From a virus: a stretch of 64,000 nt of DNA. The stretch is from IMG/VR virus record IMGVR_UViG_3300048905_000128. One strand, 5' to 3'. The position numbers and the translations under genes were made by a program. Below the pieces are notes generated by a model. That model saw only the letters and a list, made by a program, of their open reading frames with translations. It was not told the DNA's origin and did no database searches. How positions within the stretch are numbered: the stretch's first letter is position 1; each line of letters opens with the position of its first letter. Positions 13,702-59,095 of this stretch are shown here, piece by piece.

Positions 13702-14886
13702 TTACACCACCAACGCCGCATCAGTTTCCGGGGTCGATAAACCCGGCTGCCCGTCCGGGATGAACTCCCGTGTCCGCCCCAGCCCCCGCCGCCTCGGCGC
13801 AGGCTTCGGCGCCGACTTGCGCGGCTGGTAGATCCGCCGCGCAGCCGCACGACCGGCCTCCGCGATCGGGGCGGGCTCCGTCTCGGCAGCGCGCCGGGCC
13901 TCCTCGGCCGCCTCCTCGGCGGCCGCCAGCTCAGCCACGACGACCCGATGCGGAGTCGTGTGGTCGCACGGCGTCCGCGGCGACAACAGGACCCCGGGAT
14001 GCCCAGGCTGGCACCGGTCGCCCACCGGGTTGCACATCTCGCACGCCGCCAGGACGGCCGCCGTTTCGCGGGTCTCAACGGCGACCGGGTCCGGGGCCGC
14101 CTCGTGGCGGACCCGCTGCTGCCGGTTGTGGTTCTTGACCCGCTGGCACTTCCAGCAGCCCGGCACGTCGAACTCGGGATCGGCCCGGATCGCCGCGAGG
14201 TGCTCGGCGCACGCCCACTCCGACTCGGGGTCCGTCCACTTCGACTTCGGCAGGGGTGGGGGGGCGTCCGGGACCGGCCCCGTCTCGGGCTGGCCGTCGA
14301 CGGTCTCAGCTGCCCCCCCGGTCCCCCTGATGGTTCCTAAATGGTTCAAGGGGTCCCGCTCCGGGACCCCTGCTACGTCCCGCTCCGGGACGGGGGTAGT
14401 CCCGGAGCGGGACCTTGCCGACACATGGTCCCGCTCCGGGACTATGTCGTCGACCTGGGGATCATCGTCGCATGGTCCCGCTGCGGGACTATGTTCGCCA
14501 CCTGGGGTTTCTTCGGCGTCTAGGGCGTCGTCGGTCGGGGTCGGGTCGTCCTCGAACAGGGCTTCGAGCTCGTCCATCTCCTCCTTCGAGACGACTCGCT
14601 TCCGCGCCTTGAGGGCCTCGATGTTGAGTCGGTAGGCGTTCGAGCGCCGCGACCCGTTCCGGCGACGGCGGGCCCGACGCTCGATCAGGCCGTCCTCGTT
14701 CTCCAGCTCCTTGAGGAGCCGGAACACAGTCGATCGCGGGATGCCCGACGACCCCATCAGGTGCTCAATGCCGGGCTTGCACAGCCCGACGACGTTCGCG
14801 TTGTTGGCGATGGCGATCAGCAGCATCCGCTTGTTGACCGGGCCGACGTCGGACTCGAGGACAGCGTTCAGGGCCGGGATGCTCAC
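13702..14886 (-). CDS. winged-helix DNA-binding protein, candidate replication initiator (394 aa)
   Basis: GTG 14886 (VSIPALNAVLESDVGPVNKRMLLIAIANNANVVGLCKPGIEHLMGSSGIPRSTVFRLLKELENEDGLIERR) is a wHTH. Five palindromic iterons lie inside the gene. It is coupled to a 22-codon uORF. Confidence 0.7.
   Translation of the reverse strand: MSIPALNAVLESDVGPVNKRMLLIAIANNANVVGLCKPGIEHLMGSSGIPRSTVFRLLKELENEDGLIERRARRRRNGSRRSNAYRLNIEALKARKRVVSKEEMDELEALFEDDPTPTDDALDAEETPGGEHSPAAGPCDDDPQVDDIVPERDHVSARSRSGTTPVPERDVAGVPERDPLNHLGTIRGTGGAAETVDGQPETGPVPDAPPPLPKSKWTDPESEWACAEHLAAIRADPEFDVPGCWKCQRVKNHNRQQRVRHEAAPDPVAVETRETAAVLAACEMCNPVGDRCQPGHPGVLLSPRTPCDHTTPHRVVVAELAAAEEAAEEARRAAETEPAPIAEAGRAAARRIYQPRKSAPKPAPRRRGLGRTREFIPDGQPGLSTPETDAALVV
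14353..14489. repeat. five copies of the 15-bp palindrome GTCCCG-N3-CGGGAC (iteron-like)
   Basis: Copies at 14353-14367, 14377-14391, 14399-14413, 14428-14442 and 14475-14489. Confidence 0.8.
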
Positions 14887-24441: not shown

Positions 24442-24671
24442 CCGACTGCGAGACGTGCACCAGCCCGGCAACCCGTGAACGCTCCTTCGTGCGGACGGTG
24501 GGCGTCGACGAGCCCGAGGGCGGCGCCTACGCCTCCTGCGACAACCCCGAGTGTGACCAGGAATCCCACGACTACATCACGGCTGTAGGCCACTACATCG
24601 AAACCTATTTACTGTCCCCGGAAATCCGGTACGCTGGCGGGGAACCGATCATCGTGGAGGAGAGGAGATGA
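24438..24671 (+). CDS. hypothetical Cys-rich protein (77 aa)
   Basis: ATG 24438 (MTDCETCTSPATRE...). Confidence 0.55.
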   Translation: MTDCETCTSPATRERSFVRTVGVDEPEGGAYASCDNPECDQESHDYITAVGHYIETYLLSPEIRYAGGEPIIVEERR

Positions 24672-25120
24672 CCGTCATGAACACCGTCACGAAGCTACCG
24701 ACCAAGGTCGCCGACCTGGCCGATCTCATCAGGCAGCACACCGACGACCCGGAGGGCGAGCAGATCCTCCGCGCGAAGCTCATCGACCAGGAGGGCGACA
24801 AGCGGGCCGAACGGCTGTGGCTGCGCTCCCTCGGCCACCTCGAGGCCGCCCGCAAGCGCGCCGAGCGGGAGGCCGCCGAGGCCGCGAAACCCAAGCGCGG
24901 CCCCGGACGGCCACCGGTGAACCCGGACGGCACGAACACCCGCCCCAAGTGGACGCCCGCCCCCGGCCAGCTCAAGCGGATCGAGCGGGTCGTCCACACC
25001 CGCCAGGCCACCCCCAGCGACGGCCGCACCGACCCCACCGACACGAGCTCGGCAACCCGCGAAGCCGTCGAACTGTGGCTGCAGCACTGGGAGAAGGAGC
25101 TGAACCTCCCCCGCGCGTAG
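24668..25120 (+). CDS. hypothetical protein (150 aa)
   Basis: Track ORF with a GGAGGAGAGGAG SD and ATGA overlap. Confidence 0.65.
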   Translation: MTVMNTVTKLPTKVADLADLIRQHTDDPEGEQILRAKLIDQEGDKRAERLWLRSLGHLEAARKRAEREAAEAAKPKRGPGRPPVNPDGTNTRPKWTPAPGQLKRIERVVHTRQATPSDGRTDPTDTSSATREAVELWLQHWEKELNLPRA

Positions 25121-25131
25121 CCCGACACGAC

Positions 25132-25166
25132 GAGGGCCCCCGATCCGATCCGGATCGGGGGCCCTC
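25132..25166. terminator. bidirectional hairpin between convergent modules
   Basis: GAGGGCCCCCGATCCG, loop atc, CGGATCGGGGGCCCTC: a 16-bp perfect stem. Confidence 0.65.
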
Positions 25167-25172: not shown

Positions 25173-25493
25173 TCAGGCCGCCTCGTCGAGGTGCCGGTAC
25201 CGCCGCGGCTGGCGGCGGGCCCGCCACCAGGCCCGCCACCACCGCCGAGGGGCCCGATGCCGCCCCCAGAGCACCACCAGCAGCCCCACCGCCGCCACCA
25301 CGACCCCGAGGAGCGGGTGACCGTTCACGGCCAGCAGGAGCGCCACCCCAACCCCCGTCATGACCTGCCAGACATTCGCCCGGACCGGCGCGGGCGGGTC
25401 CGGTTCCGGGCGGGTGTCCCCGACGACGATCACCCGCTGCGCCGGGTAATGCCGGGAGAACGGGAACCGCTCGTCGGCCTCCTCCGGGGTCAC
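25173..25493 (-). CDS. small membrane protein (106 aa)
   Basis: Track ORF with a GTGA overlap; two transmembrane helices and an Arg/Trp-rich tail. Confidence 0.55.
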   Translation of the reverse strand: MTPEEADERFPFSRHYPAQRVIVVGDTRPEPDPPAPVRANVWQVMTGVGVALLLAVNGHPLLGVVVAAVGLLVVLWGRHRAPRRWWRAWWRARRQPRRYRHLDEAA

Positions 25494-25831
25494 GCCGCGC
25501 CCTCCCCACGGATCAGCCGCAGCGCCGGACGGCCCAGCTCGACGTCGTGGTCCTCGACGACCGCGACAGGTTGCGCGGCCACCGCGGGCAGCGGGGCCGG
25601 CTGCGCCTCGCGGGCGTCGCGCTCGGCGGCCGCCGCGACAAGGTCACGGACCCGCAACTCCATCGCGGCCCGCCGCGCCGCCCACACGAGCACCAGCAGG
25701 GCGACGAGCCCGCCGACCGTCCAACCCCACCCGACCCGCCAGATCGCCAGAGTCACGACCGCGACGACCGCGACCGTCCCGTAACCCCACGGCCACACCC
25801 ACAGATCGGATGTCGCGGTCGAGGCCCTCAT
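25490..25831 (-). CDS. small membrane protein (113 aa)
   Basis: ATG 25831 (MRASTATSDLWVWPWGYGTVAVVAVVTLAIW...) with two transmembrane helices. Confidence 0.5.
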   Translation of the reverse strand: MRASTATSDLWVWPWGYGTVAVVAVVTLAIWRVGWGWTVGGLVALLVLVWAARRAAMELRVRDLVAAAAERDAREAQPAPLPAVAAQPVAVVEDHDVELGRPALRLIRGEGAA

Positions 25832-25836
25832 TCCGC

Positions 25837-26040
25837 TCACTCGCTCCTCCTCATGAACCCGAGCCGGATCCGCTTCCCCGACCCGCCGCAGCGCGGGCAC
25901 GGTCTCGATGCGGACTTACTGAGCGGCGACACGAACCGCCCCGCCCCGTCGCATTTGCGACACGGCTTGCGCCAGTAGCGGCGCGCATCCCACAGCCACA
26001 CGACCGCGACAACCACCACGAGCGCGACCAGCAGGGTCAC
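25837..26040 (-). CDS. membrane-anchored DnaJ-type zinc-finger protein (67 aa)
   Basis: N-terminal transmembrane helix plus two CxxCxGxG motifs (CRKCDGAG, CPRCGGSG). GTGA overlap. Confidence 0.6.
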   Translation of the reverse strand: MTLLVALVVVVAVVWLWDARRYWRKPCRKCDGAGRFVSPLSKSASRPCPRCGGSGKRIRLGFMRRSE

Positions 26041-26813
26041 AGCCGACCCCCAACCGCCGCCGCCGCGGAGTCACGCACCTCGGCGAGCCACGGCCACAAC
26101 CCAGCACCCAGCCACAGCGCCGCCGCCGTCATCCCGGCGAGCAGCACGACCTCCACCACGCCTCCGGTGTGGAACCGCAGCGGCCTGGGCAGCCCGACCG
26201 GGTACCAGCGCCGCCCCCGGATCGACAGCGGCCACAACAGCGGCGCCCCCGACTCGGTCAGCGCATCCCCGACGTCGTGCACGAGCATCCCCACCGCGAC
26301 AGCTGTCCCGGCCCAGGCGTGCCCGGCCCCGACCGTCCACCACAACCCGGCCGTCAGCAGCCCGGCCGCGGCCAGGGACGGCGGCCCGGGGATCAGGTGG
26401 TCGATGCCCTTCACGGCGAGGGCCAGGCCGACGAACACCACCGACCACAGCGCCCACGACCCCCACACGGCCACCGCGGCGTTCACGCCGACGCCGAGAG
26501 CGACGGCCGCCGCCCCGGTGTGGGTGAGCGCCCGATGAGTGCCCTCGCCGTGATCGCCGGGCCCGGCCGTCGCCCGGAACACGGCCGCCGACAGCGGCCG
26601 CACCACCCGGGAGGCGAGCCACGACGCCGGACCGAACCGGCGTGTGGCGGTCGACGTCGGGTGGTCGAGGTCGGGCAGCAGGCTGAACCCGGCCGTCAGC
26701 ACCGCGAACACGAGCGCGTCCTCACGGCTGTGCACACCCGCGAGCGCGGGCGCCGCGGACGCGAGCGCCAGGCCCACGAACGCACCCGACGTCGCATGAC
26801 TCACGCCCATCAC
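26037..26813 (-). CDS. membrane-bound metal-dependent hydrolase-like protein (DUF457/YdjM-like)
   Basis: LLPDLDHPTSTATRRFG and HRALTHTG motifs with multiple transmembrane helices. GGAGG SD 8 nt before GTG 26813. Confidence 0.6.
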   Translation of the reverse strand: MMGVSHATSGAFVGLALASAAPALAGVHSREDALVFAVLTAGFSLLPDLDHPTSTATRRFGPASWLASRVVRPLSAAVFRATAGPGDHGEGTHRALTHTGAAAVALGVGVNAAVAVWGSWALWSVVFVGLALAVKGIDHLIPGPPSLAAAGLLTAGLWWTVGAGHAWAGTAVAVGMLVHDVGDALTESGAPLLWPLSIRGRRWYPVGLPRPLRFHTGGVVEVVLLAGMTAAALWLGAGLWPWLAEVRDSAAAAVGGRL

Positions 26814-26955
26814 GTGATCCGCCTCCGCTCGTTCGTTCGCTCGTTCGCCCTCATCGCGCCCCCAATGCGCGCAGGCGTGTGCGGGTGTGCGCGGGCGCTT
26901 GCGCTCTCGCACGCGCGCACGTACGCGCGCGCGCACGGTGGGGTCACGGTGGGGT

Positions 26956-28767
26956 TCATGTCCGCACCCACTTGCCGCGCCCGCTGTTGCGGGCCCGGCC
27001 CGCCTCGGCGAGCTTCCGCAGCGCCCGGTCGACCCGGCCCCGATCCACGTCGAGGGCCTTCGCGATGGCCGTCGGCCCGATCCCGCCCTCGGCGGGGAGC
27101 TGGGCGAGCACCTCGTCCTCGAAGTCCGCCGCGGCGACCGCGAGGGATGGGGCGACCTCGAGCGCAGGCACCGGCCTGTGGTCGACGACCTGGGAGGTGG
27201 AGCCCGACAGGATCCCGGCCGACCCGTGGTCGAGCATGATCGCGCCCGCGTCGACGGCGGCCCGGATCAGCCGCTCCCGCTCACCGTCGGTCAGGTACAC
27301 GCCCTTCGCCACGCGCGGGATGTTGTGCTCGTCGTCGCGGAGCAGCCACGTACCGGCCTGCAACTGCGTGCCGTCCCAGCCCTGCTTCACCGCGGAGCCC
27401 CACAGGATGCCGTTCATGTGCTGGTCGAGGCGGCCCCCGAACACGGCCATCATCTGCGCCCGGAACTCGGTGGACCCGGCATCCTCCTTCGTGCCGTTCT
27501 GCAGCATCACGTAGATCCACACCTCGGCCTTGCGGGCACGCTCGGCGAGCACCGTCAACGGGCCCACGATCTCCGGGCCCAGCGCCCTGACCAGCGACGG
27601 AAGCTCGTCGATCACCAGGAAGATGGGGGTGCCGTCCCACTTCTTGAGCTTCCGTTTGCGCATGTCGCGCTCGCGGTGCTCCACGGCCGCCATCACGCGG
27701 TTGAGCAGCTCACTGGCCTGCCCGGCGGTCGTCGCGACCGGGGCGAGCATCGTCGGCTCCCACTCCCCCAGCGACACCCCGCCCGCCATGTCGACCCCGA
27801 CGACCCCGGCCCGGCCGATCGTCATCCACGCCATGAGCGTGTCGCCCATGACGGACTTCCCGCCGCCGGACTGGGCGCAGATCATCGTGTGGCGGGTCAT
27901 CTTGTGCCCGAGCGGCGCCCGGTCCTCGAGCCTCGCCACGTTGCACAGCTCCGAACGCAGGTCTATCTGCCCGAACGGGATCGGGCCGGTCTTCGGGACC
28001 CCCGGGTGCGGGATGACGCCCTGCCACGGGTTCCGCGGCACGATCCGCACCAGCACCCGCCGCGAAGACGCCGCCTGCGAGATCGTCACCGCCCCCGGTC
28101 GCAGATGCGTGGACAGGGCGGACTCGACCTCCCTCGCGGTCCCGCCGACGCTCTTGACCGTCTGGGCGCGTCGCAGCTCGATGACCAAGTCGGTGACGAG
28201 CCGGTCGCCAGTCGTCAAAGACGGGATCACCCGCGACCCCTCGAAGGCCTTGATCGACGATGCGACATGCGGCCACCGTCGCGCCCACCGCGACGAGCGA
28301 CGCCGCGACCGGAACCGGCGATGCCACCACCACGGCAGCCCGAGCGATGCGACAGTCGCAGCCCACGCGATCCACGCCGGCTGCGACATCCCCGCCCACG
28401 CGATGAACGCCATCCAGCCGCCGCCGACCGCGACGAGCGCCGCCAGGTAGGTGCGTTCGCTGTCGCGGTCGAGCACGCCTTTGCGTCCGGCGTCGATCCG
28501 CTCCGGGACGAACCACGCCAGGGCCCGCTGCAGCCACGGCGACAGCCGGTGCCCGGCGTGTAGCAGCACCGGTGCGACACCGAGTGCGACGAGCGCGACC
28601 ACCGCGGCCGCCCAGGGTGCGACAGCGTGTAGCAGCAGGCCTGCGACGAGGATCCCGGCCGCGACAGCCCACGGGGCCAGCCCGGACCGGTACCGCCACA
28701 GCCGCCGCGACACCCACCGGGCCGCCCGCCAGGTGCGGCGAGCGGTCCGCTTCGTCGACGCCTTCAC
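26956..28767 (-). CDS. FtsK/SpoIIIE-family DNA translocase (TraB-like), N-terminal membrane anchor, C-terminal wHTH
   Basis: 603 aa with Walker A (AQSGGGKSV), Walker B (IFLVIDELP) and N-terminal transmembrane helices. The C-terminus is GIGPTAIAKALDVDRGRVDRALRKLAEAGRA. Confidence 0.85.
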   Translation of the reverse strand: MKASTKRTARRTWRAARWVSRRLWRYRSGLAPWAVAAGILVAGLLLHAVAPWAAAVVALVALGVAPVLLHAGHRLSPWLQRALAWFVPERIDAGRKGVLDRDSERTYLAALVAVGGGWMAFIAWAGMSQPAWIAWAATVASLGLPWWWHRRFRSRRRSSRWARRWPHVASSIKAFEGSRVIPSLTTGDRLVTDLVIELRRAQTVKSVGGTAREVESALSTHLRPGAVTISQAASSRRVLVRIVPRNPWQGVIPHPGVPKTGPIPFGQIDLRSELCNVARLEDRAPLGHKMTRHTMICAQSGGGKSVMGDTLMAWMTIGRAGVVGVDMAGGVSLGEWEPTMLAPVATTAGQASELLNRVMAAVEHRERDMRKRKLKKWDGTPIFLVIDELPSLVRALGPEIVGPLTVLAERARKAEVWIYVMLQNGTKEDAGSTEFRAQMMAVFGGRLDQHMNGILWGSAVKQGWDGTQLQAGTWLLRDDEHNIPRVAKGVYLTDGERERLIRAAVDAGAIMLDHGSAGILSGSTSQVVDHRPVPALEVAPSLAVAAADFEDEVLAQLPAEGGIGPTAIAKALDVDRGRVDRALRKLAEAGRARNSGRGKWVRT

Positions 28768-29633
28768 GCCGTCACCTTCCGGGCCGCCCGCCGGGCGGCC
28801 TGACGGTCACGGTTGTAGCGCCTGCGGGCCTCCTCGACCGTCTCCCCCGGCATCGGCTTCGCCGAGAGCACCCCGGACGTCGTGTCGCGACGTCGCGGTG
28901 TCGCAGGCTTCGCCGGGCGGGCCTGCGCACGCACCGTCGCCGGCGACGTCGCGGCAGCCGCGACACGAGACGCGACCGGCTCAGCCGCGACAACCGGCGT
29001 CGGGGGCGGCTCCGGCCCTGTGGCGGCCGTCGCCTCGGCCTTCCGTGTCGCCTTCCAGCTCTCCCACGCTGCACGAGGGTCATCGGTGAAGGTGTCGATC
29101 GAGTGCCGCCACACCCGCGGCGTCACGAGCGGGAAAGCGAACCACCGCGACAGCCCGAACACCGCCCCGTGCGTGTCCGACGTCCCCCGCGCGGCGAGGA
29201 TGATCGCCTGGCGGCGGCGGGTGTGCATCCCCCACAGCCACGGCGACATCACCGAGAACACGGCGAACATGAATGCGAGCGGTGTCGGCGCCCAATGGTC
29301 GGAGAAATGCCACCACTGCAGCAGTGCCGCCCCGATCGCCAGCCCGTACGACGCGAGACGGCGACGGGCCGCCTGCAGTGTGGCGTTGCGGAGCAGCTCG
29401 TCATGGGCGTGCCACTGCACCGACAGTGACAGCGACTCGAACCCGGCCGACGCGGCGATCGACAGCGCGATACGGGCCCCGAGAGGCCAGCCGCTCGACT
29501 CGGTGATCCCCAGCAGGGCGATCACCTGCCCCGTCATCGCCAGACCGGTGTCGAGCACCAGCGGGACGAGCAGGTGCAGCGTCGGGAGGTGGCGGGCCCA
29601 GTACCCGGGCCGCTCCCCCGTGTCGGCGCTCAT
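28764..29633 (-). CDS. polytopic membrane protein, DUF2637-like (289 aa)
   Basis: ATG 29633 in ATGA overlap. Four hydrophobic helices and a basic C-terminal tail. Adjacency to the FtsK-like gene is as in actinobacterial conjugative elements (from memory). Confidence 0.6.
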   Translation of the reverse strand: MSADTGERPGYWARHLPTLHLLVPLVLDTGLAMTGQVIALLGITESSGWPLGARIALSIAASAGFESLSLSVQWHAHDELLRNATLQAARRRLASYGLAIGAALLQWWHFSDHWAPTPLAFMFAVFSVMSPWLWGMHTRRRQAIILAARGTSDTHGAVFGLSRWFAFPLVTPRVWRHSIDTFTDDPRAAWESWKATRKAEATAATGPEPPPTPVVAAEPVASRVAAAATSPATVRAQARPAKPATPRRRDTTSGVLSAKPMPGETVEEARRRYNRDRQAARRAARKVTA

Positions 29634-29842
29634 GCGACGTTCCCGCGCTGCTCGAGGTTCTCGATCCACGACTGCAGCTGTGCGCGGACGACCTCGGCTG
29701 CGTCGGCGGCCAGCGCGGGCGGCGCGTTCCGGATCGCCGCGGCGAGACGGTCACCGAGCACGCGGATCAGCGCGTCGGGGGTGGTGGCCGCGGCTTCCCG
29801 CGCGGCGAAGAACGCGACGCGGTTGTCCAGGGTCCCAGGCAT
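29630..29842 (-). CDS. hypothetical protein (70 aa)
   Basis: ATG 29842 (MPGTLDNRVAFFAAREAA...) with a GAGAGGA SD. Confidence 0.5.
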   Translation of the reverse strand: MPGTLDNRVAFFAAREAAATTPDALIRVLGDRLAAAIRNAPPALAADAAEVVRAQLQSWIENLEQRGNVA

Positions 29843-29872
29843 TACGAGTCCTCTCGGGGTCGTGCGGGTCGC

Positions 29873-29907
29873 GCGGCAGCCCGGGGGCGCCATCCCAGGG
29901 CTGCCGC
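29873..29907 (-). terminator. GC hairpin
   Basis: GCGGCAGCCC pairs with GGGCTGCCGC. It lies between CCCCTACCCC (29914) and the SD of gene 29842. Confidence 0.45.
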
Positions 29908-29930
29908 GCAGGTGGGGTAGGGGTCGCAGG

Positions 29931-30116
29931 TCAGCCGATCTGTCGGTTGCAGCCGACGCAGTAGGCGGAGGAGAAGAGCAGCCCGGAGTGCACGCACACG
30001 TCGGCGTCGGCGCACTCCGGGTGCCGCTCGACGTGCTTGTCCATCCGCTTGTTCGCGGCCTTCCGATCCCCCGCGCTCACCGTGTTGGGCTGCCAGTGCG
30101 CCCGGTGGTTCGCCAC
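29931..30116 (-). CDS. small zinc-ribbon-like protein (61 aa)
   Basis: AAGGAGA SD 5 nt before GTG 30116. Sequence: VANHRAHWQPNTV...HPECADADVCVHSGLLFSSAYCVGCNRQIG. Confidence 0.5.
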   Translation of the reverse strand: MANHRAHWQPNTVSAGDRKAANKRMDKHVERHPECADADVCVHSGLLFSSAYCVGCNRQIG

Positions 30117-30245
30117 TGCTGTCTCCTTGCGTGTGCGCGCACGCGGTCGCGGGCGTGCGCGCGTTGTGTGATTCGGTCGCCCGCCGGGGCTCCGGGAGGG
30201 GACTCGGAGGGCGGCACCCGGCGGGCGACCGCTGCACGCCACGCT

Positions 30246-30264
30246 ATCCAATGACTGATTGGAT
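30246..30264. promoter_or_regulatory. palindrome ATCCAAT-N5-ATTGGAT (operator-like), with an extra ATCCAA half-site at 30272
   Basis: Lies in the divergent intergenic region upstream of the XRE cassette. TTGACT is at 30285-30290. Confidence 0.5.
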
Positions 30265-30342
30265 CGTCTACCATCCAAGGGCACGTTGACTCGATCGGCG
30301 CAGCGCCGGACACTCGAACCGCTGACCGCGGGAAGGGGACCC

Positions 30343-30561
30343 ATGAAGATCACGACGCTGCGCACCATGGCCGGAACGAACAAGTGCCCGGACATCGAGA
30401 GCTGTCCTGCTGTGCTCACCACCGACACCACCGACGACCTGTTCGTCGTCACGAGAGTGGTCGACGACCCGGCCGTACTCGCCGAGTTCGCACACCTGGT
30501 CGGCCCAGGCGAGCAGCTCGGCTACGTGCCGCGCGAGCTGCTCAAGGACCTGGAGGTCTGA
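30343..30561 (+). CDS. hypothetical small protein (72 aa)
   Basis: ATG 30343 (MKITTLRTMAGTNKCPDIESCPAVLTTDTTDDLFVVTRVVDDP...) with a GGAAGGGGA SD. Confidence 0.55.
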   Translation: MKITTLRTMAGTNKCPDIESCPAVLTTDTTDDLFVVTRVVDDPAVLAEFAHLVGPGEQLGYVPRELLKDLEV

Positions 30562-30563
30562 GC

Positions 30564-31127
30564 ATGGGCGACTTCCTGGAGCCCCACGAGGTCGGGCCCG
30601 TCATCCGCTCCTACCTGCGCGGGGAGGGCGACGTCGCGTGGCGGATCGAGCAGCTCCCTGCCTACGCGGTCACCTCCGACGGAGACGACTTCCGGCGTTG
30701 GCAGGCTGGGGAGCTCGAACCGACGTGGGAGCGCAAGCAGCTCAACTTCGATGTCCTCGCCCAGCGTGCGGCCAACGGGATCCGCTCGGAGCGGGTGCGG
30801 ATCTTCACCCCCGAGCTGACCGAGTACGAGCGGTACGCCTGCGAATGGGGCTACGCGCTGAATGGCCCGGCGGGCGAGGACATCCGCGTCCTGCATCGCG
30901 GCGAGCACAGGATCCCGCCGCTCCTCGGCTTCGACTACTGGCTCCTCAACGACACGGCAGTGATCCGGATGCACTACGACGAGGTCGGCCGGTGGTGCGG
31001 CGGCGAGTTCGCGCCCGAGCTCCTCGACGTCTGCCGCCGCGAGCGGGCCGCGCTGTGGGCGGCAGCCGAGCCCTTCGACACCTGGTATGCCCGCCACCCT
31101 GAGCTGCAGAGACGACTGGCAGCCTGA
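30564..31127 (+). CDS. DUF6879-like protein (187 aa)
   Basis: ATG 30564 with a GGAGG SD. MGDFLEPHEV...YWLLNDTAVIRMHYDEVGRW. The family assignment is from memory. Confidence 0.6.
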   Translation: MGDFLEPHEVGPVIRSYLRGEGDVAWRIEQLPAYAVTSDGDDFRRWQAGELEPTWERKQLNFDVLAQRAANGIRSERVRIFTPELTEYERYACEWGYALNGPAGEDIRVLHRGEHRIPPLLGFDYWLLNDTAVIRMHYDEVGRWCGGEFAPELLDVCRRERAALWAAAEPFDTWYARHPELQRRLAA

Positions 31128-31132
31128 TCGAC

Positions 31133-31987
31133 ATGACGGACAGTGCGTTTCCGGAGCGGCCCCCGCACAAGCTGGGGCCGCTCCTCCGCGCTGCCCGCCG
31201 AATCGCCGGCCTGTCGCAGAGCGCCGTGGCGAAGTCGACGAGCCTCCCCCAGTCGTCGGTGTCCCGCATGGAGCAGGACCCGCCGGGCAGCGTCCCGACA
31301 CCGAAGCAGGCAGTCGAGCTGGCGGACCTCTACCGGCTCCCCCACGAGTGGAGGGACCAACTGGTGCAGCTCGCCGAAGATCACAAAGAGCAGCGCGAGG
31401 AGCATCGATTCGTCGTCGTCCGCGGCCGCAACGTGCTGCACGTGCAGCGACGATTCCGTCGCCTCGAAGAGTCCGTGCAACGGATGCGGTCGTACTCGTC
31501 CGGGGTCGTGCTCGGTCAGCTGCAGTCACCGCGGTACGCGGCAGCCATCTTCGGCCAGCCCGCCGACTCCGAGGTCGTGCGCGAGCGTCTTGCCCGCGGA
31601 GTGCAGTCGGCAGCCAACAGCGGCCGCCGCTACGAGGTCGTGATGACCGAAGGGACCGCGTACCCGGGTCTGGGATCCGCCGAGGTGATGGTCGAGCAGT
31701 TCGAGCACCTGATCGAGGTGAGCCGTCTCCCCCACGTTGACCTGCGATGGATCGGCCGCGGCACGGTGCTCGACTCCCCGTCGTCGGTCCCCGGTTTCAA
31801 CATCTATGACGACACCGCGGTGGTCCTCAGCCAGGTCGATGGCGCTGCCACCCTCGACGACCCGGACGACATACTCCGCTACGTCGCCGAGTTTGATCGA
31901 CTCTGGGGTGCCGCCGCGGCTGGTGCCGAGGCGCGCGACGCGCTCGCCGAGGTCTCCGGCTGGTACTCCCGCTGGGCCGCCCAGTGA
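31133..31987 (+). CDS. XRE HTH regulator with DUF5753-like C-terminal domain (284 aa)
   Basis: HTH segment LGPLLRAARRIAGLSQSAVAKSTSLPQSSVSRMEQ, then a long C-terminal domain as in WhiJ/Scr1-type regulators (from memory). Confidence 0.75.
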   Translation: MTDSAFPERPPHKLGPLLRAARRIAGLSQSAVAKSTSLPQSSVSRMEQDPPGSVPTPKQAVELADLYRLPHEWRDQLVQLAEDHKEQREEHRFVVVRGRNVLHVQRRFRRLEESVQRMRSYSSGVVLGQLQSPRYAAAIFGQPADSEVVRERLARGVQSAANSGRRYEVVMTEGTAYPGLGSAEVMVEQFEHLIEVSRLPHVDLRWIGRGTVLDSPSSVPGFNIYDDTAVVLSQVDGAATLDDPDDILRYVAEFDRLWGAAAAGAEARDALAEVSGWYSRWAAQ

Positions 31988-32526: not shown

Positions 32527-32783
32527 CGCCCCGCCACTCCCCCGCCGCCCGCTGAGATCGATTCTCCCGATTCCCGCGCCCGCGAGCACGGGCGGCCCCG
32601 ACTGGCGCGTCCTCGTGGCGCTCAGCCCCTCGGAATGGCCATGCGGCCCCCGGGCCGGGCGTCGGGAACCGGCCCGGGAGCGGTGTGACGTGTGGGCAGC
32701 CCGCTACCCGACCGCACCCCGCCAAGAGGCCGCACGCGGGTAGCCAGTGAGTGGCCGACCGGCTGCCACCCTGCCGCACACCA

Positions 32784-32892
32784 GCGGCCAACAGGCGGCC
32801 AACATGCGGGCAACGGGCGGCACGGTGGTGGCCGACAGACGGCCAGTGTGCCGCGTGTCGGCCCGTCATGGATGGGACACGTGCCGCGTGTC
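32784..32892. repeat. phased short repeats upstream of parA (candidate centromere/operator)
   Basis: Four tandem 11-bp units at 32784-32827: GCGGCCAACAG, GCGGCCAACAT, GCGGGCAACGG, GCGGCACGGTG. GTGCCGCGTGTC occurs at 32848 and 32881, 33 bp apart. Confidence 0.6.
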
Positions 32893-32987
32893 TGTCGCCA
32901 ACCGGTGGGGGAGTGGTGGTGTACTTTCCGCGCGCAACCGGCCCACCTGCCACCCGCACCCCACAAGCCCCCCAGGAGCTCCCCGCC

Positions 32988-33893
32988 ATGATCGAGCGCA
33001 CCGTGTCCTTCATCAACGGGAAGGGTGGCGTCGGGAAGACGTCGCTCACCGCGAACCTCGGTGGGCTGATCGCCGCCGCCGGGTATCGGGTCCTGCTGTG
33101 CGATCTCGACCGCCAGGGAAACCTGGCCCGCGACCTCGGCATCAAAAATGACCCCAGAAATGATCTAGGTCGGTCGATGTTCGTCGCCGCCACCACCGGG
33201 GCCCCACTCGCACCCGTGGAGAACGTGCGACCGAACCTCGACGTCATCCCCGGCGGGAAGGTCATCGGCGAGATGGCGGGCGCGCTCTACTCCCGGGCCA
33301 TCCGCGGCGAGAGCGTCGACACAGCCGTCGAGCAGGCCCTCGCACCGCTCGCCGGGAACTACGACCTCATCCTGTTGGACTGCCCGCCGGGGGAGGAGAC
33401 GGTGCAGCGCATGGCGTTGACCACGTCGGAGTACGTCGTCATCCCCACCAAGAGCGACGCCGCATCCCTCGACGGGCTCGTCGAGGTCTCCGAGCTGTTC
33501 GCCGCCGTCCGCCAGTCGAGCAACCCGTACGTGCAGCTCCTCGGCGTGGTGCTGTTCGGGACCGGGGTGACGTCGAAGCGGATCGCCGCCGACACCCGCA
33601 AAGCGGTGGCGCGGGACCTGGGGAACCCCGACCTCGTGTTCGACGCCCGGATCCGGCACGTCGAGGCGGCCGCCGTGAACACCCGCGACGTCGGCCGTCT
33701 CGTCCACGAAGTCGAGGCCGACCTGCCCGCCGCGAAGGCGGCCCGGCTCGCGCAGCTGCGAGCCGGGCGGCACCGGGCCGACGACGCCGGGCCCCGGCTC
33801 GCCGCATCGGCCGCCGGGCTGGCCGCCGACTATGCGGCGCTCGCCCAGGAGTTCACCGCCCGTCTCGCCGAGCGCGTCGAGGTGGCGCCATGA
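32988..33893 (+). CDS. parA: ParA-family partition ATPase (301 aa)
   Basis: Deviant Walker A FINGKGGVGKTS, plus LLDCPPG. AGGAG SD before ATG 32988. Confidence 0.9.
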   Translation: MIERTVSFINGKGGVGKTSLTANLGGLIAAAGYRVLLCDLDRQGNLARDLGIKNDPRNDLGRSMFVAATTGAPLAPVENVRPNLDVIPGGKVIGEMAGALYSRAIRGESVDTAVEQALAPLAGNYDLILLDCPPGEETVQRMALTTSEYVVIPTKSDAASLDGLVEVSELFAAVRQSSNPYVQLLGVVLFGTGVTSKRIAADTRKAVARDLGNPDLVFDARIRHVEAAAVNTRDVGRLVHEVEADLPAAKAARLAQLRAGRHRADDAGPRLAASAAGLAADYAALAQEFTARLAERVEVAP

Positions 33894-36138: not shown

Positions 36139-39100
36139 TCAGATGGTGGTGATCGGTGTCGCGGCCCGGTAGAGGCCGCGGGCGTACGGGCGTCCGGCCC
36201 GGGGGAGACCGGTCGCGTAGGGCTGGCCTGCGCGCAGAGCACCGACCGGGCCCGGGCCGACCCCGAACGGGGCCGCCGAATCCCGCGCGGCCGCCACATC
36301 GGTAGCGGTCCGTGTGACCGCGTGGATCCGGGTGGCCGTGTCGAGGGCTGCGGCCTGGTCGACGACCGCCCGACCCCGCTGCGACGGGGCCCTCACCGCG
36401 ACATCGGTTGCGGCCGCGACATCCGCGGCGGTAAAGGCCCTCGTCGAGGTGGGCCCCGCCTGGTCGGCTGCGGGGGCCGCATCGGAGGCGGTGCGGGACA
36501 CCACCAGGTGACGGAGCACCGTGTCCGCTGCCGTCGCGGCATCGGCGATCAGCCGCGACAGCGACACCGCGGCCGTGGTGACATCGGAGGCCGGTGCGAC
36601 ATCCGATGCAAACCGGGGGAGCCCCGCCGGTACGAACACGCTGTCGAATGCCGGGGCCGAATCCTGGGCGGTCCGCGACCGTGACAGCGGGCTGCGGGTG
36701 GCGGCCGGTGTCGCCGAGGCCGAGTCGGTGACGTCGCGGCTGGTCGAGAGGTTCGCCCGGGTGGCGACGTCGACCGCTACGGCGACGTCCTGCGCCGTGT
36801 GTTGGAGCTGCACGGCCCGGCCCGCGACGTCGAGCGCCGGGGCCGAATCGGCGCTGCCCCGGGTGGGGGACAGCGCAGCCCGGGACGCCACGTCGACTGC
36901 AGCTGCGACATCCACGGCGGTGCGGCCGACACCGTCCGGGGCTCGGGTCGCCCCGTCGAGCGCCGCCGCGGTGTCGGCGACGGTCCGCCCGATCGAGGCG
37001 GCCGCCGTCGCCGCATCGACCGCGGCGGCCTGGTCGTCGGCGGTCCGGGCCCCGAGCTCGGGGGGGCGCCCGGCCTGATCCGTTGCCGCCGCGGTGTCGG
37101 CGGCCTGCCGGTCGACGGTGACCTGCCCGGCCGCGGTGTCGACGGCCGGGGCGTGGTCGACGACGAACTGGCCGCCCGCCGCTGACGTCCCCGCCGTGTC
37201 CACGGCGGGCGCCGAGTCGGCGGCCGACCGGGATCTCGTCGTTGCTGCTCGTCCCGCCGAGTCCACGGCCGGGGCGGAGTCGCCTGCCTGGCGGGATGCC
37301 ACCGTGCTCCGGGCCGCGCTGTCTGTCGCTGGCGCGGTGTCGGTGACGGTGCGGGACAGCCGGACAGCCGGTGTAGCACCGTCGACCGCAGGGGCGGTGT
37401 CCGTGGTGCTCCGTAGCGGCGACATCGTGGCCCGTGCCGCGACGTCGACGGCCGCCGCGACATCGGATGCTGTCGTAGCGCCGCCGAGCTGGTCGGCCGC
37501 CGAGTCCACGGCCGGGGCGGAGTCTGTCGCAGTGCGGGACCATGTCGCGCCACCCCGGTTTGCGACATCGGTCGCAGCCGCGGTGTCACCGGCCGTGCGG
37601 GCGGCCGAGAACGGGGCCCGGCCCGCCGAGTCGGTCGCGGCGGCGGTGTCCGTTGCGACCCGGGCGGGGGTCAGAGCAGACCGGGTGGCCGAGTCGGTCG
37701 CGGCCGCGGTGTCCCCGCCGGTTCGGGAGAAGATCGAGCCTGCACGGGCGGCGGTATCCGTCGCCGGCGCGAGGTCACCACCGGTGCGGCTGACCGCCAG
37801 TGCCGTCCGGCTGGCTGTGTCGGTAGCCGCGGCGGTGTCGGCGGCCGTCCTAGACCACGTGTCCGCCGAGCGTGTGGCGCTGTCGGTCGCCGCAGCGGTG
37901 TCGGCCCCGGTCCGGGTGACGAGCAGGGCCGCCCGGGTGGCCGTGTCGGCGGCTGGGGCCGTGTCGGTCGCGGTCCGGGCCCGGGTGATCGTCGAGCGGG
38001 TCGCGGTGTCCGCCGCCGGGGCCGAGTCGGTCGCGCCGATCGTGCTGGCCTGGGCGCCCCGCACCACCGCGTCGCCGGCCGGGGCCGAGTCCGATGCGGT
38101 GCGGATGGACGAGGTGGCCGCCCGTGAGGCCGCATCGGTGGCGGCCGCCGAGTCGACGGGGGAGCGGCCCGCCGTGGTCGTGCGGGCTACGGAGTCCGTC
38201 GCGGCCGCCGTGTCGGCGCCCGACCGGGACTTGAGTACCGCTCCGTGGGTAGCGGAGTCGCTGGCCGGGGCCGAGTCCGACGCGGTCGCCAAATGCGACC
38301 CCGACGTGCCGAGCAGCGCGTTCGTGACGAGGCCGCCGATGATGGCGTGTCCGGCGTCGGTCGGGTGATAGTCCGACGTCCAGTCGGTGGTTCCGGGGCC
38401 GCCGGTGCCGGACATCCACGTCTCGGCGTCGATGACCAGCAGGTTTCCGTCGGTTGCCGCGTAGCTCCTGATGGCGGCGGCGTACGCCGCCCACGTCGGG
38501 CTGGCCGTCGCGGCGGTCGGGGACACGTTGTGCGCGATGAACAGGGCGATCGACGGCACCTTCGTGAGGGCGCGCGCCCATCCGACCAGGGTGGTCAGGT
38601 AGCCGATGTACGCGGCCGTCGTGGTGTTCGCCGACCAGTCGTTGAGCCCCAGCTCGATGAGCACGAGGTCGGGGCTGAGGGCATCCCACGTGGCCGGGAG
38701 CGTGTTCGACCCGACCGCGTCGAAGCCGCTCGCATACTGCTGGGCGGTGATGCCGACGCGGGCCCCGTCGTAGAGCGTGATCCCGCTGGTGGCGTCGCCG
38801 TCGAAGACGACGAGGCCGCCGACGTACGCGTTCTGCGCTGCGTTCGTGGCGACCTGCACGGTGTGGGACCCGGAGGCGCCGAGGGTGATGGTCGTCGGCG
38901 TCCAGGTGGGCGCACCGCCGTTGTCGGCGGTCACGGTGACCGGGGAGCCGCCGTCGACGGAGTAGGTGAACTGGGAGGCGCCGCTGTAGGCGCCGTACCA
39001 GAGCTGCGCCGAGGTGCCGGTGACCGTCCACGTGAGGGTGGCGGTGGTGCCCAGTAGTCGAGTGTTGAAGCCGAACGGTCCGGACCAGAAGTCCGTATTG

Positions 39101-39564
39101 CTGCTGCCAGTTTCGGCGATCCCGGTTGTGCCCCAAGGGGAATCGGGGCCATACACCTGGTACTTCGCCGGGATGGCGCCGACGCCGCCCGCGGCCAGGC
39201 CCAGCCGTGCCCGGATCGCCGCGACCGTGAGGCTCGCCCACCGGTTGGCCCGGACGGACGCCCCCTGCCCTTCCCCGACGGAGTCGCCGATGACAAGCAG
39301 CCGGGCCCGACCCGTCCCTACCTGGGCCGCCGAGAGCGCCGTGTTCCATGCGGTCAGCGGTCCACTGGCGGGCACAGCCCGGTCGCCCGCTGTGTCCGTC
39401 GCCCCGGCCGTGTCCGCGGCCGACCGGGCACGGGTCGCCACACTGCGGGTCGCGGTGTCGGTGGCCGGGGCCGAATCCGAGGCGGACAGATTCGCCTGGA
39501 CCTGCGAGGCCACCACGGGCGCGGCCCGCAGGCGGCGGGGGATGCTGCGGCCGAGGATCGCCAC
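36139..39564 (-). CDS. 1141-aa minor tail-like protein: SGNH/GDSL hydrolase domain plus about 32 tandem 21-aa repeats
   Basis: GDS block LLVIGDSVGEGQG, GLNDW block and DYHPTDAGH (DxxH) block. From about aa 427 to 1105 the protein is a run of units such as RTGADTAAATDSATRSADTWS. Confidence 0.8.
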   Translation of the reverse strand: MAILGRSIPRRLRAAPVVASQVQANLSASDSAPATDTATRSVATRARSAADTAGATDTAGDRAVPASGPLTAWNTALSAAQVGTGRARLLVIGDSVGEGQGASVRANRWASLTVAAIRARLGLAAGGVGAIPAKYQVYGPDSPWGTTGIAETGSSNTDFWSGPFGFNTRLLGTTATLTWTVTGTSAQLWYGAYSGASQFTYSVDGGSPVTVTADNGGAPTWTPTTITLGASGSHTVQVATNAAQNAYVGGLVVFDGDATSGITLYDGARVGITAQQYASGFDAVGSNTLPATWDALSPDLVLIELGLNDWSANTTTAAYIGYLTTLVGWARALTKVPSIALFIAHNVSPTAATASPTWAAYAAAIRSYAATDGNLLVIDAETWMSGTGGPGTTDWTSDYHPTDAGHAIIGGLVTNALLGTSGSHLATASDSAPASDSATHGAVLKSRSGADTAAATDSVARTTTAGRSPVDSAAATDAASRAATSSIRTASDSAPAGDAVVRGAQASTIGATDSAPAADTATRSTITRARTATDTAPAADTATRAALLVTRTGADTAAATDSATRSADTWSRTAADTAAATDTASRTALAVSRTGGDLAPATDTAARAGSIFSRTGGDTAAATDSATRSALTPARVATDTAAATDSAGRAPFSAARTAGDTAAATDVANRGGATWSRTATDSAPAVDSAADQLGGATTASDVAAAVDVAARATMSPLRSTTDTAPAVDGATPAVRLSRTVTDTAPATDSAARSTVASRQAGDSAPAVDSAGRAATTRSRSAADSAPAVDTAGTSAAGGQFVVDHAPAVDTAAGQVTVDRQAADTAAATDQAGRPPELGARTADDQAAAVDAATAAASIGRTVADTAAALDGATRAPDGVGRTAVDVAAAVDVASRAALSPTRGSADSAPALDVAGRAVQLQHTAQDVAVAVDVATRANLSTSRDVTDSASATPAATRSPLSRSRTAQDSAPAFDSVFVPAGLPRFASDVAPASDVTTAAVSLSRLIADAATAADTVLRHLVVSRTASDAAPAADQAGPTSTRAFTAADVAAATDVAVRAPSQRGRAVVDQAAALDTATRIHAVTRTATDVAAARDSAAPFGVGPGPVGALRAGQPYATGLPRAGRPYARGLYRAATPITTI
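36250..38286 (-). repeat. in-frame degenerate 63-bp (21-aa) tandem repeat array
   Basis: Consensus R-T-x-x-D-T/S-A-A/P-A-x-D-x-A-x-R-x5; two further units at the N-terminus (aa 27-62). Confidence 0.8.
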
Positions 39565-39593
39565 CGAATGACCCCCCTCCTACTGTCGGCGGG

Positions 39594-58060: not shown

Positions 58061-58567
58061 TCAGGCGGTGTACTCGCGGCCGTCCGCGTCCCACAGGACT
58101 TCGCACCGCAGACAGGCGGGCGAGGCGGCGGCCGTCTGCTCCGGGTCCGAGTAGTGGACGGTGATCCGGCCAGGGCCGGGGGCCTCGGCGACGGACAGGA
58201 ACGCGCCCCCGTGGGTGTGATCGGCCCAGGACGCTTCGATCCGTTCGATCAGCAGGTCGAGGGCGTCATCGAGGGCCCGCTGCTCGTCCTCCCACAGCCC
58301 GGTCGATGTCGTGGTCGACCCGATCGGCCACCAGCACTTCGCCCTGAACTGCATCGAAGGGCGGCGGCGCTGTGTGGCGACCCGCGCGGTGGCGCGCTGC
58401 GGAGCCAGCAGGTAGATCCCCGTCGACCGGGTCTGCAGGGTGCGCGGCCAGTACGCCTGCACGACCTGCCACGGCCCCCCGTCGGCTTCGAGGAGCGACG
58501 GGAGACCGTCACCGGACCTCTTCAGCCAGGCGACTTCGGCATCCACGCGGCGGCCATCCTGGGGCAC
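58061..58567 (-). CDS. head-tail joining/tail terminator-like protein (168 aa)
   Basis: GAGGAGGAGG SD 6 nt before GTG 58567. The function is inferred from position only. Confidence 0.6.
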   Translation of the reverse strand: MPQDGRRVDAEVAWLKRSGDGLPSLLEADGGPWQVVQAYWPRTLQTRSTGIYLLAPQRATARVATQRRRPSMQFRAKCWWPIGSTTTSTGLWEDEQRALDDALDLLIERIEASWADHTHGGAFLSVAEAPGPGRITVHYSDPEQTAAASPACLRCEVLWDADGREYTA

Positions 58568-58570: not shown

Positions 58571-59095
58571 TCACCTCCTCCTCGGGCGGACCCGGTGGTT
58601 ACGGTGCGGGCGGCGCCGCTTGAGGTGAGACCGTCCGGGCCGCCGCACACGGCTGTGGAGGAGCCCGCGGCTGGTGTGGTGGGTGCCGGTGCCCGCGGAG
58701 ATCAGCCCGTGCGCCGGGCGTGGCTTCCGGCGGCCCCGCTGTGGGGCGCTGACGGCCCGCGACGACGCGATGCCGGTCCGTCCGAGCTTGGCGCGCTGGG
58801 CAGCCCTCCGGGCCGTCCTTGCCGGTGTGGTGCCGACCGCGTGCCCGGCGGGGCGGGCCTTCTTCGGCGGCTTCGGCTTCGCCGGATGACGGGCCTTGAG
58901 CGACGCGCTGATCTTCGCCCTGGTCGCCGCCGAGATGGCGTGACCGGCGTGGGGGTGCTTCTTCCCCCTCAGCGCCGCACTGATCTTCGCCCTGGTGGCC
59001 GAGGAGACTGCGTGCCCGGCGTGGGGGTGCTTCTTCCCTTTGAGCGACGCGCTGATCTTCGCCCGGGTGGCTGCCGAGACGGCGTGACCGGCCAC
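58571..59095 (-). CDS. NUMOD3-repeat DNA-binding-like protein (174 aa)
   Basis: Three 23-aa units GHAVSxATRAKISAxLxGKKHPHA match the NUMOD3 signature (H-S-x-E-T-K-x-K-I-S...GK). The basic C-terminal half has high GC3. Confidence 0.55.
   Translation of the reverse strand: MAGHAVSAATRAKISASLKGKKHPHAGHAVSSATRAKISAALRGKKHPHAGHAISAATRAKISASLKARHPAKPKPPKKARPAGHAVGTTPARTARRAAQRAKLGRTGIASSRAVSAPQRGRRKPRPAHGLISAGTGTHHTSRGLLHSRVRRPGRSHLKRRRPHRNHRVRPRRR

Follow-up and report, generated by a model that had tools for sequence, protein, structure and literature searches.

In Streptomyces conjugation a single TraB-like FtsK homologue, together with small Spd membrane proteins, moves double-stranded DNA (dsDNA) between mycelia, and the TraB protein of plasmid pSVH1 binds an array of 8-bp TraB recognition sequence (TRS) repeats. 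Chromosomal FtsK/SpoIIIE proteins pump DNA out of closing vegetative or sporulation septa. Among the Spd proteins, SpdB2 has an N-terminal coiled-coil domain and four predicted transmembrane (TM) helices, and homologues of it have been noted on actinophages (PMC4447253). The published clt loci, at which a translocase is loaded, vary in sequence and combine direct and inverted repeats; that of pWTY27 contains repeats of both kinds and is made up of the last 16 bp of traA and the 159 bp that follow (PMC3583192). In the Streptomyces plasmid-phage pZL12, transfer depends on a tra gene and on two genes beside it (PMC3583192). FtsK-like genes of cultured Streptomyces phages have been annotated without a tested role (PMC11536984). 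Here we analyse a stretch of 64,000 nucleotides (nt) of viral DNA, IMG/VR record IMGVR_UViG_3300048905_000128 (the window), and in particular a cluster of eight minus-strand genes at 25173-30116. A preliminary description, made from the sequence alone, had seen in this cluster a transfer module of the kind carried by plasmids and by actinomycete integrative and conjugative elements (AICEs). Our analysis bears this out at the level of homology: judged by its sequence, the cluster is a TraB/Spd-type dsDNA translocation module, as indicated by matches to plasmid TraB proteins, a sister clade in AICE-like elements, a link to plasmid DUF2637 proteins and a conserved site at the position of a clt. 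The carrier, which measures at least 101 kb, is best read as a large temperate siphovirus and is probably a phage-plasmid. Particle-free transfer or intramycelial spread would be the best-supported function of the module; it rests on what its relatives do, and we give it an even chance. The general idea has precedents in plasmid-phage pZL12 and in the SpdB2 homologues of actinophages.

Results

The translocase is predicted to be a membrane-anchored FtsK-fold motor

The gene at 26956-28767 (minus strand) encodes a TraB-like FtsK/SpoIIIE dsDNA translocase of 603 amino acids (aa). The Pfam model FtsK_SpoIIIE (PF01580) is passed narrowly, at 25.3 bits against a cut-off of 24, and with a family profile built from 20 members, FtsK motors in the PDB are matched at E 1.5e-21 and TcpA, a coupling protein of conjugation, at 8e-13. 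The Walker A motif reads SGGGKS and the Walker B motif FLVIDE. Hydropathy peaks lie near the N-terminus at residues 53-71 and 108-126, and the N-terminal membrane domain carries a PWWWHRR motif. An AlphaFold model with a predicted local distance difference test (pLDDT) score of 85.6 places there a helical membrane domain (long helices spanning residues 2-171), followed by the motor, a disordered linker (524-545) and a winged helix-turn-helix (wHTH) fold at 543-602. The best structural match in a Foldseek search is FtsK on dsDNA (6t8o, E 1e-16), with a TM-score, normalised to the target, of 0.64-0.69; TcpA is also matched. Profile and model thus bear out the earlier proposal of a membrane-anchored motor, which has the FtsK fold and carries a wHTH at its C-terminus.

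The C-terminal domain is a predicted DNA reader. Its profile (A7) matches wHTH domains at E 3e-10 to 1e-8, and the domain gives no match to Pfam FtsK_gamma. It is closest to Z-alpha domains, ahead of the wHTH domains of ordinary regulators (ORF112, E 6e-9; ZBP1, E 3e-6). In a Z-alpha domain, helix 3 of the wHTH bears an Asn/Tyr pair and the wing contains a Trp. The wing Trp is near-invariant in the translocase family; the Asn/Tyr pair is not kept, the Tyr being replaced and the window protein having Asp for Asn. Neither the translocase nor its partner proteins belong to a specific NCBIfam family, and no PHROGs family matches the motor. In PADLOC there is a weak match to mad8 (E 1.5e-6) that covers the P-loop region only, and we rejected a defence-system identity, since nothing beyond this generic P-loop match was found. 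Two longer members of the family were also noted: P0015 (1004 aa) contains an intein (PF14890) inside the translocase, and P0041 (1040 aa), in which the profile match is split into two stretches, may resemble it.

The translocase family links phages with AICE-like elements

Neither megablast of the region nor tblastn of the translocase against 50,697 phage records gave a match. In the annotated collections only three Streptomyces plasmids were matched, through their TraB-type FtsK genes (23-28% identity); two of these plasmids (7 and 18 kb) were inspected and have the order FtsK, small open reading frame (ORF), DUF2637. Metagenomic data proved far richer, with 27 homologues from a word-indexed search and 417 family representatives at E <= 1e-30 from an exhaustive profile search. 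Members occur in three contexts: phage-like contigs, 58-105 kb long, that carry terminase, ThyX or PNKP genes; chromosomal Amycolatopsis prophages and elements in which a large serine integrase adjoins the module; and small integrative elements that bring together integrase, GntR and Nudix genes, the identity here being 28-30%. The second of these contexts shows that the module is not peculiar to phage-plasmids.

The third context is best illustrated by a 16.0-kb insertion in Cryptosporangium sp. (L015:800-16849), which is flanked by copies of a perfect 45-bp repeat that falls in a tRNA-Thr gene and which carries a tyrosine integrase, GntR, Nudix, a regulator with HTH_17/DUF5919 domains and the translocase. 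Its layout is AICE-like and leaves no room for virion genes; no Rep gene was recognised in it. What looks like defence cargo is also present in this element, in the form of a RelA/SpoT-domain protein and an ApeA-HEPN protein, and its HTH_17/DUF5919 regulators are two paralogues. In a rough neighbour-joining tree the phage-borne translocases form a clade that is sister to the AICE-like clade, and the plasmid TraB-type proteins fall outside both. Phage-borne translocases retain 30-50% identity across many phage genomes. With its genes intact and coupled and its family retained across many phages, the module is probably maintained and hardly a relic.

Membrane and zinc-motif proteins accompany the translocase

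The gene upstream of the translocase (28764-29669, minus strand) overlaps its start by GTGA and encodes a protein with four TM segments, of 289 aa if started at the ATG at 29633 and otherwise of 301 aa, which ends in a basic tail rich in Pro and Ala. It had been described as DUF2637-like. The Pfam model does not support this, as the protein has no Pfam match at E <= 0.1, with DUF2637 (PF10935) missed, and none of the 13 members of its family matches that model even at E <= 1. A remote link was obtained by profile comparison: in hhalign the family (A3) aligns with a Streptomyces linear-plasmid protein annotated as DUF2637 (97.1% probability, E 5e-11, 109 columns), and tblastn of one homologue (P0031) matches two plasmid genes annotated as DUF2637. 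This link emerged only via the plasmid intermediate. Direct BLASTP of the window protein against DUF2637 proteins gave no membrane-domain match, comparison of A3 with a phage DUF2637 set (A4) aligned the helix-turn-helix (HTH) region only, at 23% probability, and P0031 matched none of the 50,697 phage records. We therefore read the protein, from profiles, as a remote relative of the plasmid DUF2637/Spd-type proteins. Its homologues have a charged N-terminal region of about 100 residues, four TM segments and often a C-terminal HTH, with the conserved motifs ESxxLxVxWHAHDALL and SPWLWGLHTRR, and they stand beside an FtsK gene (L034), in an element with Int, Xis and Prim-Pol (L036) and in a Micromonospora prophage (L035). 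In many other phage-borne members of the translocase family a true DUF2637 gene overlaps the translocase start.

Downstream of the translocase lies a gene for a polytopic membrane metal-dependent hydrolase of the YdjM/DUF457 family (26037-26810, minus strand; 257 aa, or 299 aa from 26936), which confirms an earlier assignment: PF04307 scores 71.2 bits against a cut-off of 29 (E 9.7e-20) and phrog_20744 matches at E 3e-35. A YdjM gene is found about 1-3 kb from the translocase in at least 10 related loci. It is followed by a gene for a 67-aa protein (25837-26040, minus strand; its start overlaps the YdjM stop by GTGA) that has, as had been noted, a single N-terminal TM helix and two CxxCxGxG motifs, CRKCDGAG and CPRCGGSG. 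The motif pair is a predicted zinc centre of the DnaJ/anti-TRAP type; the corresponding Pfam scores are below the cut-offs (DnaJ_CXXCXGXG 23.6 against 32.7, Anti-TRAP 24.1 against 32), and phrog_3931 is matched at E 1e-6.

A conserved site follows the translocase gene

The spacer 3' of the translocase gene (26811-26955) contains a candidate clt or operator. In most loci of either clade a motif of about 14 nt, TAYGCGCGCAGGCG, is found 8-125 nt past the stop codon of the translocase gene, and it is kept across loci whose proteins share only 28-50% identity. In an unbiased test of the 200 nt past the stop codon, the commonest 8-mers, CGCAGGCG and CGCGCGTA, were present in 11 of 19 non-redundant loci, a level equal to that of the codons of the best-conserved protein motifs, against a maximum of 6 in control windows outside the gene. 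A 36-column sequence-only model (R1), searched over 707 kb, gave strong matches solely at its training sites and at one untrained site (L016), all of them adjoining the translocase gene, the best reaching 23 bits (E 4e-5). Weaker matches lay upstream of traB on the 7-kb plasmid p7 (E 0.02) and on a 34-kb linear plasmid (E 0.024). In a held-out test all three loci fetched later gave one match each, 28-66 nt past the translocase stop codon, with E-values of 5e-6, 1e-4 and 1.4e-4.

In the window the motif reads AATGCGCGCAGGCG and lies within 26856-26887 on the plus strand. The same spacer holds two perfect tandem 11-mers, ACCCCACCGTG, at 26934-26955, GCGAACGA repeats, and a perfectly alternating purine/pyrimidine run of 30 nt (26908-26937) that exceeds the maximum of 200 Markov simulations; other loci have flanking inverted and direct repeats of their own around the motif. 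Since the motif occurs in either orientation, depending on the locus, and neither an Rfam family nor a consensus RNA fold was found, we rejected an RNA element; a protein site in duplex DNA fits. The simplest reading is thus a predicted protein-binding site in duplex DNA, a candidate either for clt, the translocase loading site, or for an operator. An att site was also considered; this was rejected on the ground that L015 has another sequence, a 45-mer in the tRNA-Thr gene, as its att repeat. As regards composition, the conserved site has an alternating CG core, and within 26856-26937 both this site and the 30-nt run alternate between pyrimidine and purine; DNA of this kind is the classic Z-prone type.

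A search for TraB-recognition 8-mer repeats had been suggested in the preliminary description. In the window we found neither TraB-type 8-mer repeats nor a skew like that of the FtsK-orienting polar sequences (KOPS), the maximum z being 3.75; GACCCGGA occurs 8 and 5 times on the two strands, and no checked 8-mer is over-represented.

Operon layout and control regions

Genes were called by third-position G+C content (GC3) in the window, whose overall G+C is 72%. The module comprises eight consecutive minus-strand ORFs with coding-type GC3, seven of which were also called independently on identical metagenome contigs. The remaining one, the 67-aa CxxCxGxG gene, is 77% identical to a 67-aa gene 3' of YdjM in L007, and L048 has a 67-aa gene in the matching position after YdjM. 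The cluster had been described as a single operon with coupling for most of its length. The eight genes and their strand hold; coupling by 4-base stop/start overlaps is seen at four of the seven junctions, as ATGA at 29630-29633 and as GTGA at 28764-28767, 26037-26040 and 25490-25493. The other three junctions are gaps of 88 nt, 145 nt (between FtsK and YdjM, assuming the YdjM start at 26810 that was called on identical contigs) and 5 nt.

In the order of transcription, the operon begins with a Cys-rich miniprotein of 61 aa (29931-30116, minus strand). It has the pattern C-x5-C-x11-C-x2-C; the four Cys residues of the supposed zinc ribbon are thus present and zinc may be bound, while no family in Pfam, PHROGs, NCBIfam or PADLOC matches it. 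Next comes a soluble 70-aa protein (29630-29842, minus strand) without a family match in Pfam or PHROGs, whose stop codon overlaps the start of the four-TM protein gene. The operon closes, in agreement with the earlier observation of two small polytopic membrane proteins, with a 113-aa protein (25490-25831, minus strand; 136 aa from 25900) that has no significant family match and a 106-aa protein with an Arg/Trp-rich tail (25173-25493, minus strand), whose start codon overlaps the stop of the gene before it. Two TM helices are predicted in each of these two proteins. Beyond the last gene, a perfect inverted repeat of 16 nt (I10, 100% complementary, 25132-25166) separates it from the convergent plus-strand gene 24668-25120, and this hairpin is probably a bidirectional terminator without a T-tail. 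The consensus terminator scan did not flag it because it lacks a T run, and the consensus scan for promoters and terminators was uninformative on this GC-rich DNA.

The other end of the operon faces a divergent control region (30117-30342). A palindrome, GCGCGCACGC-N8-GCGTGCGCGC, precedes the AAGGAG/GTG at which the first gene starts by about 20 nt, and the region also contains a weak second copy of the conserved motif at 30142-30168 (12.5 bits with R1, E 0.12), an alternating purine/pyrimidine run of 18 nt at 30128-30145 and an inverted repeat (I1) at 30161-30244. Across it, on the plus strand at 30343-31987, stand a 72-aa gene, a DUF6879 protein gene and an XRE-type HTH_31/DUF5753 regulator gene (Pfam E 1.7e-34 and 5.8e-31). 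The DUF6879 and HTH_31/DUF5753 pair (30564-31987 in the window) is divergent from the translocase module in five otherwise different elements, namely the window, L002, L008, L023 and L034. Their position is that of kor/traR, and we propose all three genes as candidates for regulating the module.

The surrounding element

The window holds genes for a tape measure, a tail tube, an SU10-like capsid protein and an endolysin, as identified with PHROGs and Pfam. It is not the complete siphovirus genome that it was first taken for: terminase and portal genes lie about 1.5-7 kb past its right end, and identical genes on contigs of 86.7, 101.5 and 132.5 kb give an element of at least 101 kb. The ParA system seen earlier is confirmed by a ParA-family partition ATPase (32751-33893, plus strand) about 4 kb from the translocase gene, which matches AAA_31 at E 1.5e-31 as well as CbiA and ParA. 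The absence of an integrase likewise held up, no integrase or recombinase domain being present in the window or in 10 kb on either side of it (84 kb); at least 17 kb of the replicon lie beyond. Family searches of the window found no ParB or Rep protein, and in particular no Rep of the AICE types (RepSA, RepAM, Prim-Pol). A rep-like gene with iterons had been noted on first inspection. Five to six near-palindromes of 16 nt, GGTCCCGCTCCGGGAC, do occur in both orientations at 14352-14489 within a gene for 394 aa (13702-14886), and these iteron-like 16-mers could mark an origin within a rep-like gene; the gene itself has only a weak HTH_IclR match, is otherwise unassigned in Pfam and NCBIfam searches, and was not identified as rep.

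The only annotated relative of the virion module is pAmyja1 of Amycolatopsis japonica (NZ_CP008954.1, 92.5 kb, circular), in which the tape measure, tail tube, capsid-like protein and a 574-aa protein are syntenic at 26-65% protein identity. pAmyja1 is a bona fide extrachromosomal relative and carries partition genes. A phage-plasmid is a plausible description of the window element because of its ParA, the lack of an integrase in 84 kb and this virion synteny with a circular plasmid. The host would be a high-GC actinomycete, probably a mycelial one.

Several further features of the element were recorded. Where parA begins, or immediately ahead of it, a tandem repeat of 11 bp (3.5 copies of GCGGCCAACAG, 32784-32821) may serve as a centromere or operator. 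A 72-bp tandem repeat of 2.7 copies (58899-59092) stands between the virion genes 58061-58567 and 59097-59771, and a 132-bp repeat of 2.3 copies (52790-53087) lies inside the tape measure gene. Beside the Amidase_2 endolysin gene is a gene for 1141 aa (about 36140-39565, minus strand), missed by GC3 calling and annotated with a GDSL-lipase domain on one contig, which may encode a large protein with a fused LysB-like lipid esterase. Past the right end of the window, 1.5-10 kb from position 64000 (L039:538-6830), the terminase and portal genes are directly preceded by a cluster of QueC, PTPS/QueD, radical-SAM QueE and GTP cyclohydrolase I (FolE) genes for 7-deazaguanine or queuosine precursors, which suggests that the phage DNA is modified. 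Contigs of different samples (L041 and L042 versus L043) diverge just left of window position 143, with a 466-aa gene with a dATP/dGTP pyrophosphohydrolase domain in one variant and a 265-aa gene with different neighbours in the other; hence the element exists as several variants in these metagenomes.

Discussion

If the module works as its relatives suggest, the translocase would form a hexameric pump in the membrane, and its wHTH would load this pump on the unpackaged replicon at TAYGCGCGCAGGCG, which would serve as clt. The pump would then move phage or prophage dsDNA across septal cross-walls or hyphal contacts, with the Spd-like pore protein and the small membrane proteins as its partners, so that without virions the prophage-plasmid could colonise the mycelium and perhaps others next to it. 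Restraint of the operon, the part that kor/traR play on plasmids, would fall to the divergent DUF6879 and HTH_31/DUF5753 genes. Alternatively, the palindromic part of the motif may be an operator of these same regulators and not a loading site.

Several points weigh against transfer or spread as the function. One member of the translocase family comes from a metagenome-assembled genome of Mycobacterium, a non-mycelial host, and many others reside in ordinary 60-kb phages or integrated prophages, where the need for conjugation-like transfer is not obvious. The tree that places the phage-borne clade beside the AICE-like one is rough, has no support values and includes neither chromosomal FtsK nor packaging ATPases. 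The Pfam DUF2637 model misses the four-TM partner, and the window has no GntR repressor of the kor type. The conserved site is single-copy, unlike the array of 8-bp TRS that pSVH1 TraB binds, and palindromes resembling the motif occupy promoter positions, upstream of the operon in the window and upstream of traB on p7; such promoter-proximal copies fit an operator at least as well as they fit clt.

Among other explanations, the one that we take most seriously, although we consider it unlikely, is that the translocase is a segregation helper, which clears low-copy plasmid-prophage or replicating phage DNA from closing septa and does not act between cells. Such a role would secure the inheritance of a replicon of at least 100 kb, and several observations speak for it: the fold and the best structural matches are those of FtsK itself, the wHTH next to a specific DNA site recalls FtsK-gamma and KOPS, and ParA is encoded close by. 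A skewed or repeated 8-mer that would give direction along the genome is missing, however, and the closest non-phage relatives are found in small integrative elements and conjugative plasmids, not among chromosomal FtsK proteins. A coupled membrane partner of the Spd/DUF2637 type is, moreover, a hallmark of modules for transfer or spread. The presence of the family in integrated prophages can be read both ways, because conjugation is not needed there, yet an integrated prophage already segregates with the chromosome. A part in lytic growth, where the motor would resolve or move concatemeric DNA as an accessory of replication or packaging, appears very unlikely to us. FtsK-like genes are annotated in cultured actinophages, possibly for replication (PMC11536984), the structural neighbours of the window protein include viral proteins, among them some from uncultured siphoviruses that are named 'DNA translocase FtsK', and in relatives of about 60 kb as well as in pSLE1 the ATPase gene is near the terminase. 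Against this, the element has a dedicated terminase and portal, a membrane anchor and coupled polytopic membrane proteins are unfit for a cytoplasmic role in replication, and homologues exist in small elements without virion genes.

It is also conceivable, but quite improbable, that the ATPase and the membrane proteins serve host takeover or exclusion, either by blocking incoming DNA (superinfection exclusion, anti-conjugation or defence) or by remodelling the envelope, on which YdjM and the small membrane proteins could act. The weak mad8 match, the exclusion lipoprotein Ltp among the neighbours of relatives and the defence cargo of the AICE-like element point in this direction. A sequence-specific wHTH with a conserved cis site by its gene would nevertheless be unexpected for an exclusion protein, no defence family is matched beyond the generic P-loop, and in elements of AICE-like layout this translocase is the sole gene of transfer type. 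The weakest of the rivals, which we regard as highly improbable, is a passive relic, captured recently from an AICE or plasmid by recombination and functionless in the phage. Actinophage genomes are mosaic, and the block of ParA, DUF5753, DUF6879, FtsK and membrane protein is partly syntenic with a 222-kb contig that does not look like a phage (L034). This low rank reflects the intact, coupled state of the genes and the age of the clade within phages: all eight ORFs have coding-type GC3, with overlapping stop and start codons, and the phage-borne proteins form a deep clade of their own, at 30-50% identity, in which the cis site is preserved.

Transfer or spread could also have a wider scope than this one element. 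We speculate, while thinking it rather unlikely, that a whole clade of actinophages, with integrating prophages as well as plasmid-prophages, shares dsDNA export with AICE-like elements, loading at one universal TAYGCGCGCAGGCG and moving as naked dsDNA between hyphal compartments or mycelia without particles. The Z-alpha-like wHTH may also read the alternating CG core as a Z-prone or structure-specific signal. To our knowledge, Z-prone or structure-specific loading has not been described for FtsK- or TraB-type motors.

What is new here is a distinct lineage of translocases, undetectable in cultured phages, and its link to AICE-like elements, together with a recurrent operon make-up that includes YdjM and the CxxCxGxG protein, and the conserved site. 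If the module works as its relatives suggest, temperate actinophages would have a second, particle-free route of spread. Plaque assays would not reveal such a route and receptor-based resistance would not stop it, and it would blur the boundary between phage, plasmid and AICE in the main antibiotic-producing bacteria. The suggestion of Thoma et al. (2015) becomes testable with one translocase family, one coupled membrane partner and one 14-nt site, and the motif may provide a simple marker for such modules where the proteins are too divergent to annotate.

Comparison with known systems

Compared with cultured actinophages, the window encodes an ATPase of the same FtsK superfamily as, for example, Streptomyces phage Geonosis (PMC11536984), and viral proteins are among the structural neighbours of its translocase; none of these cultured-phage proteins, however, is matched by it in tblastn at E <= 1e-3. 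Chromosomal FtsK, with its gamma domain and KOPS, resembles the window protein in motor fold, membrane anchor, flexible linker and wHTH. The wHTH of the window protein differs in missing FtsK_gamma and resembling Z-alpha, and the window has no polar repeated 8-mers. pAmyja1, despite its syntenic virion module, has no homologue of the translocase, carries a tyrosine integrase, and has partition genes of the ParB type, not the ParA type.

The plasmid-phage pZL12 and its relative pSLE1 are similar in general design: replicons of about 86-90 kb that combine a plasmid part (ParAB), a siphovirus and a locus for conjugal transfer (PMC3583192). pSLE1 nonetheless shows no detectable similarity to the translocase or the capsid-like protein of the window, its ATPase is annotated as of the type IV coupling-protein type, and it has two integrases. 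In pSLE1 at 62770-76486 (L045:12770-26486), a GntR gene faces away from a run of about 15 small genes, at the end of which stand genes for proteins of 594 and 774 aa, the latter annotated as a member of the type IV coupling-protein family and located immediately upstream of the terminase genes. This layout mirrors that of 60-kb phage contigs in which the FtsK-like gene is near the terminase.

AICEs of the pSAM2 type are approached by the sister clade of the translocase, which occurs in elements that have an integrase gene as well as GntR and Nudix genes; one of them or more is tRNA-integrated, att-bounded and endowed with the same cis motif. These relatives differ from AICEs in that no Rep protein was identified in them, and the window element differs in its virion, lysis and ParA genes, its size of at least 101 kb and the lack of an integrase in 84 kb. 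The Streptomyces TraB/Spd systems of pSVH1, pIJ101 and pWTY27 differ from the window in having arrays of 8-bp TRS, where the window has one site of about 14 nt, and a GntR repressor, where it has the DUF6879 and HTH_31/DUF5753 pair. The window translocase is only 23-28% identical to plasmid TraB-type proteins and has a distinct PWWWHRR N-terminal domain; its operon adds YdjM and the CxxCxGxG protein, and the module sits in a phage. In contrast to these differences, the likenesses concern the core of the machinery. Both have a single membrane-associated FtsK-like motor with a C-terminal wHTH, and both have divergently transcribed genes for regulators, which in the window are candidates. Small or polytopic membrane proteins are coupled to the motor in each, including a four-TM partner of the DUF2637/SpdB2 type (PMC4447253), and in pWTY27, as in the window, direct and inverted repeats follow directly 3' of the tra gene (PMC3583192).

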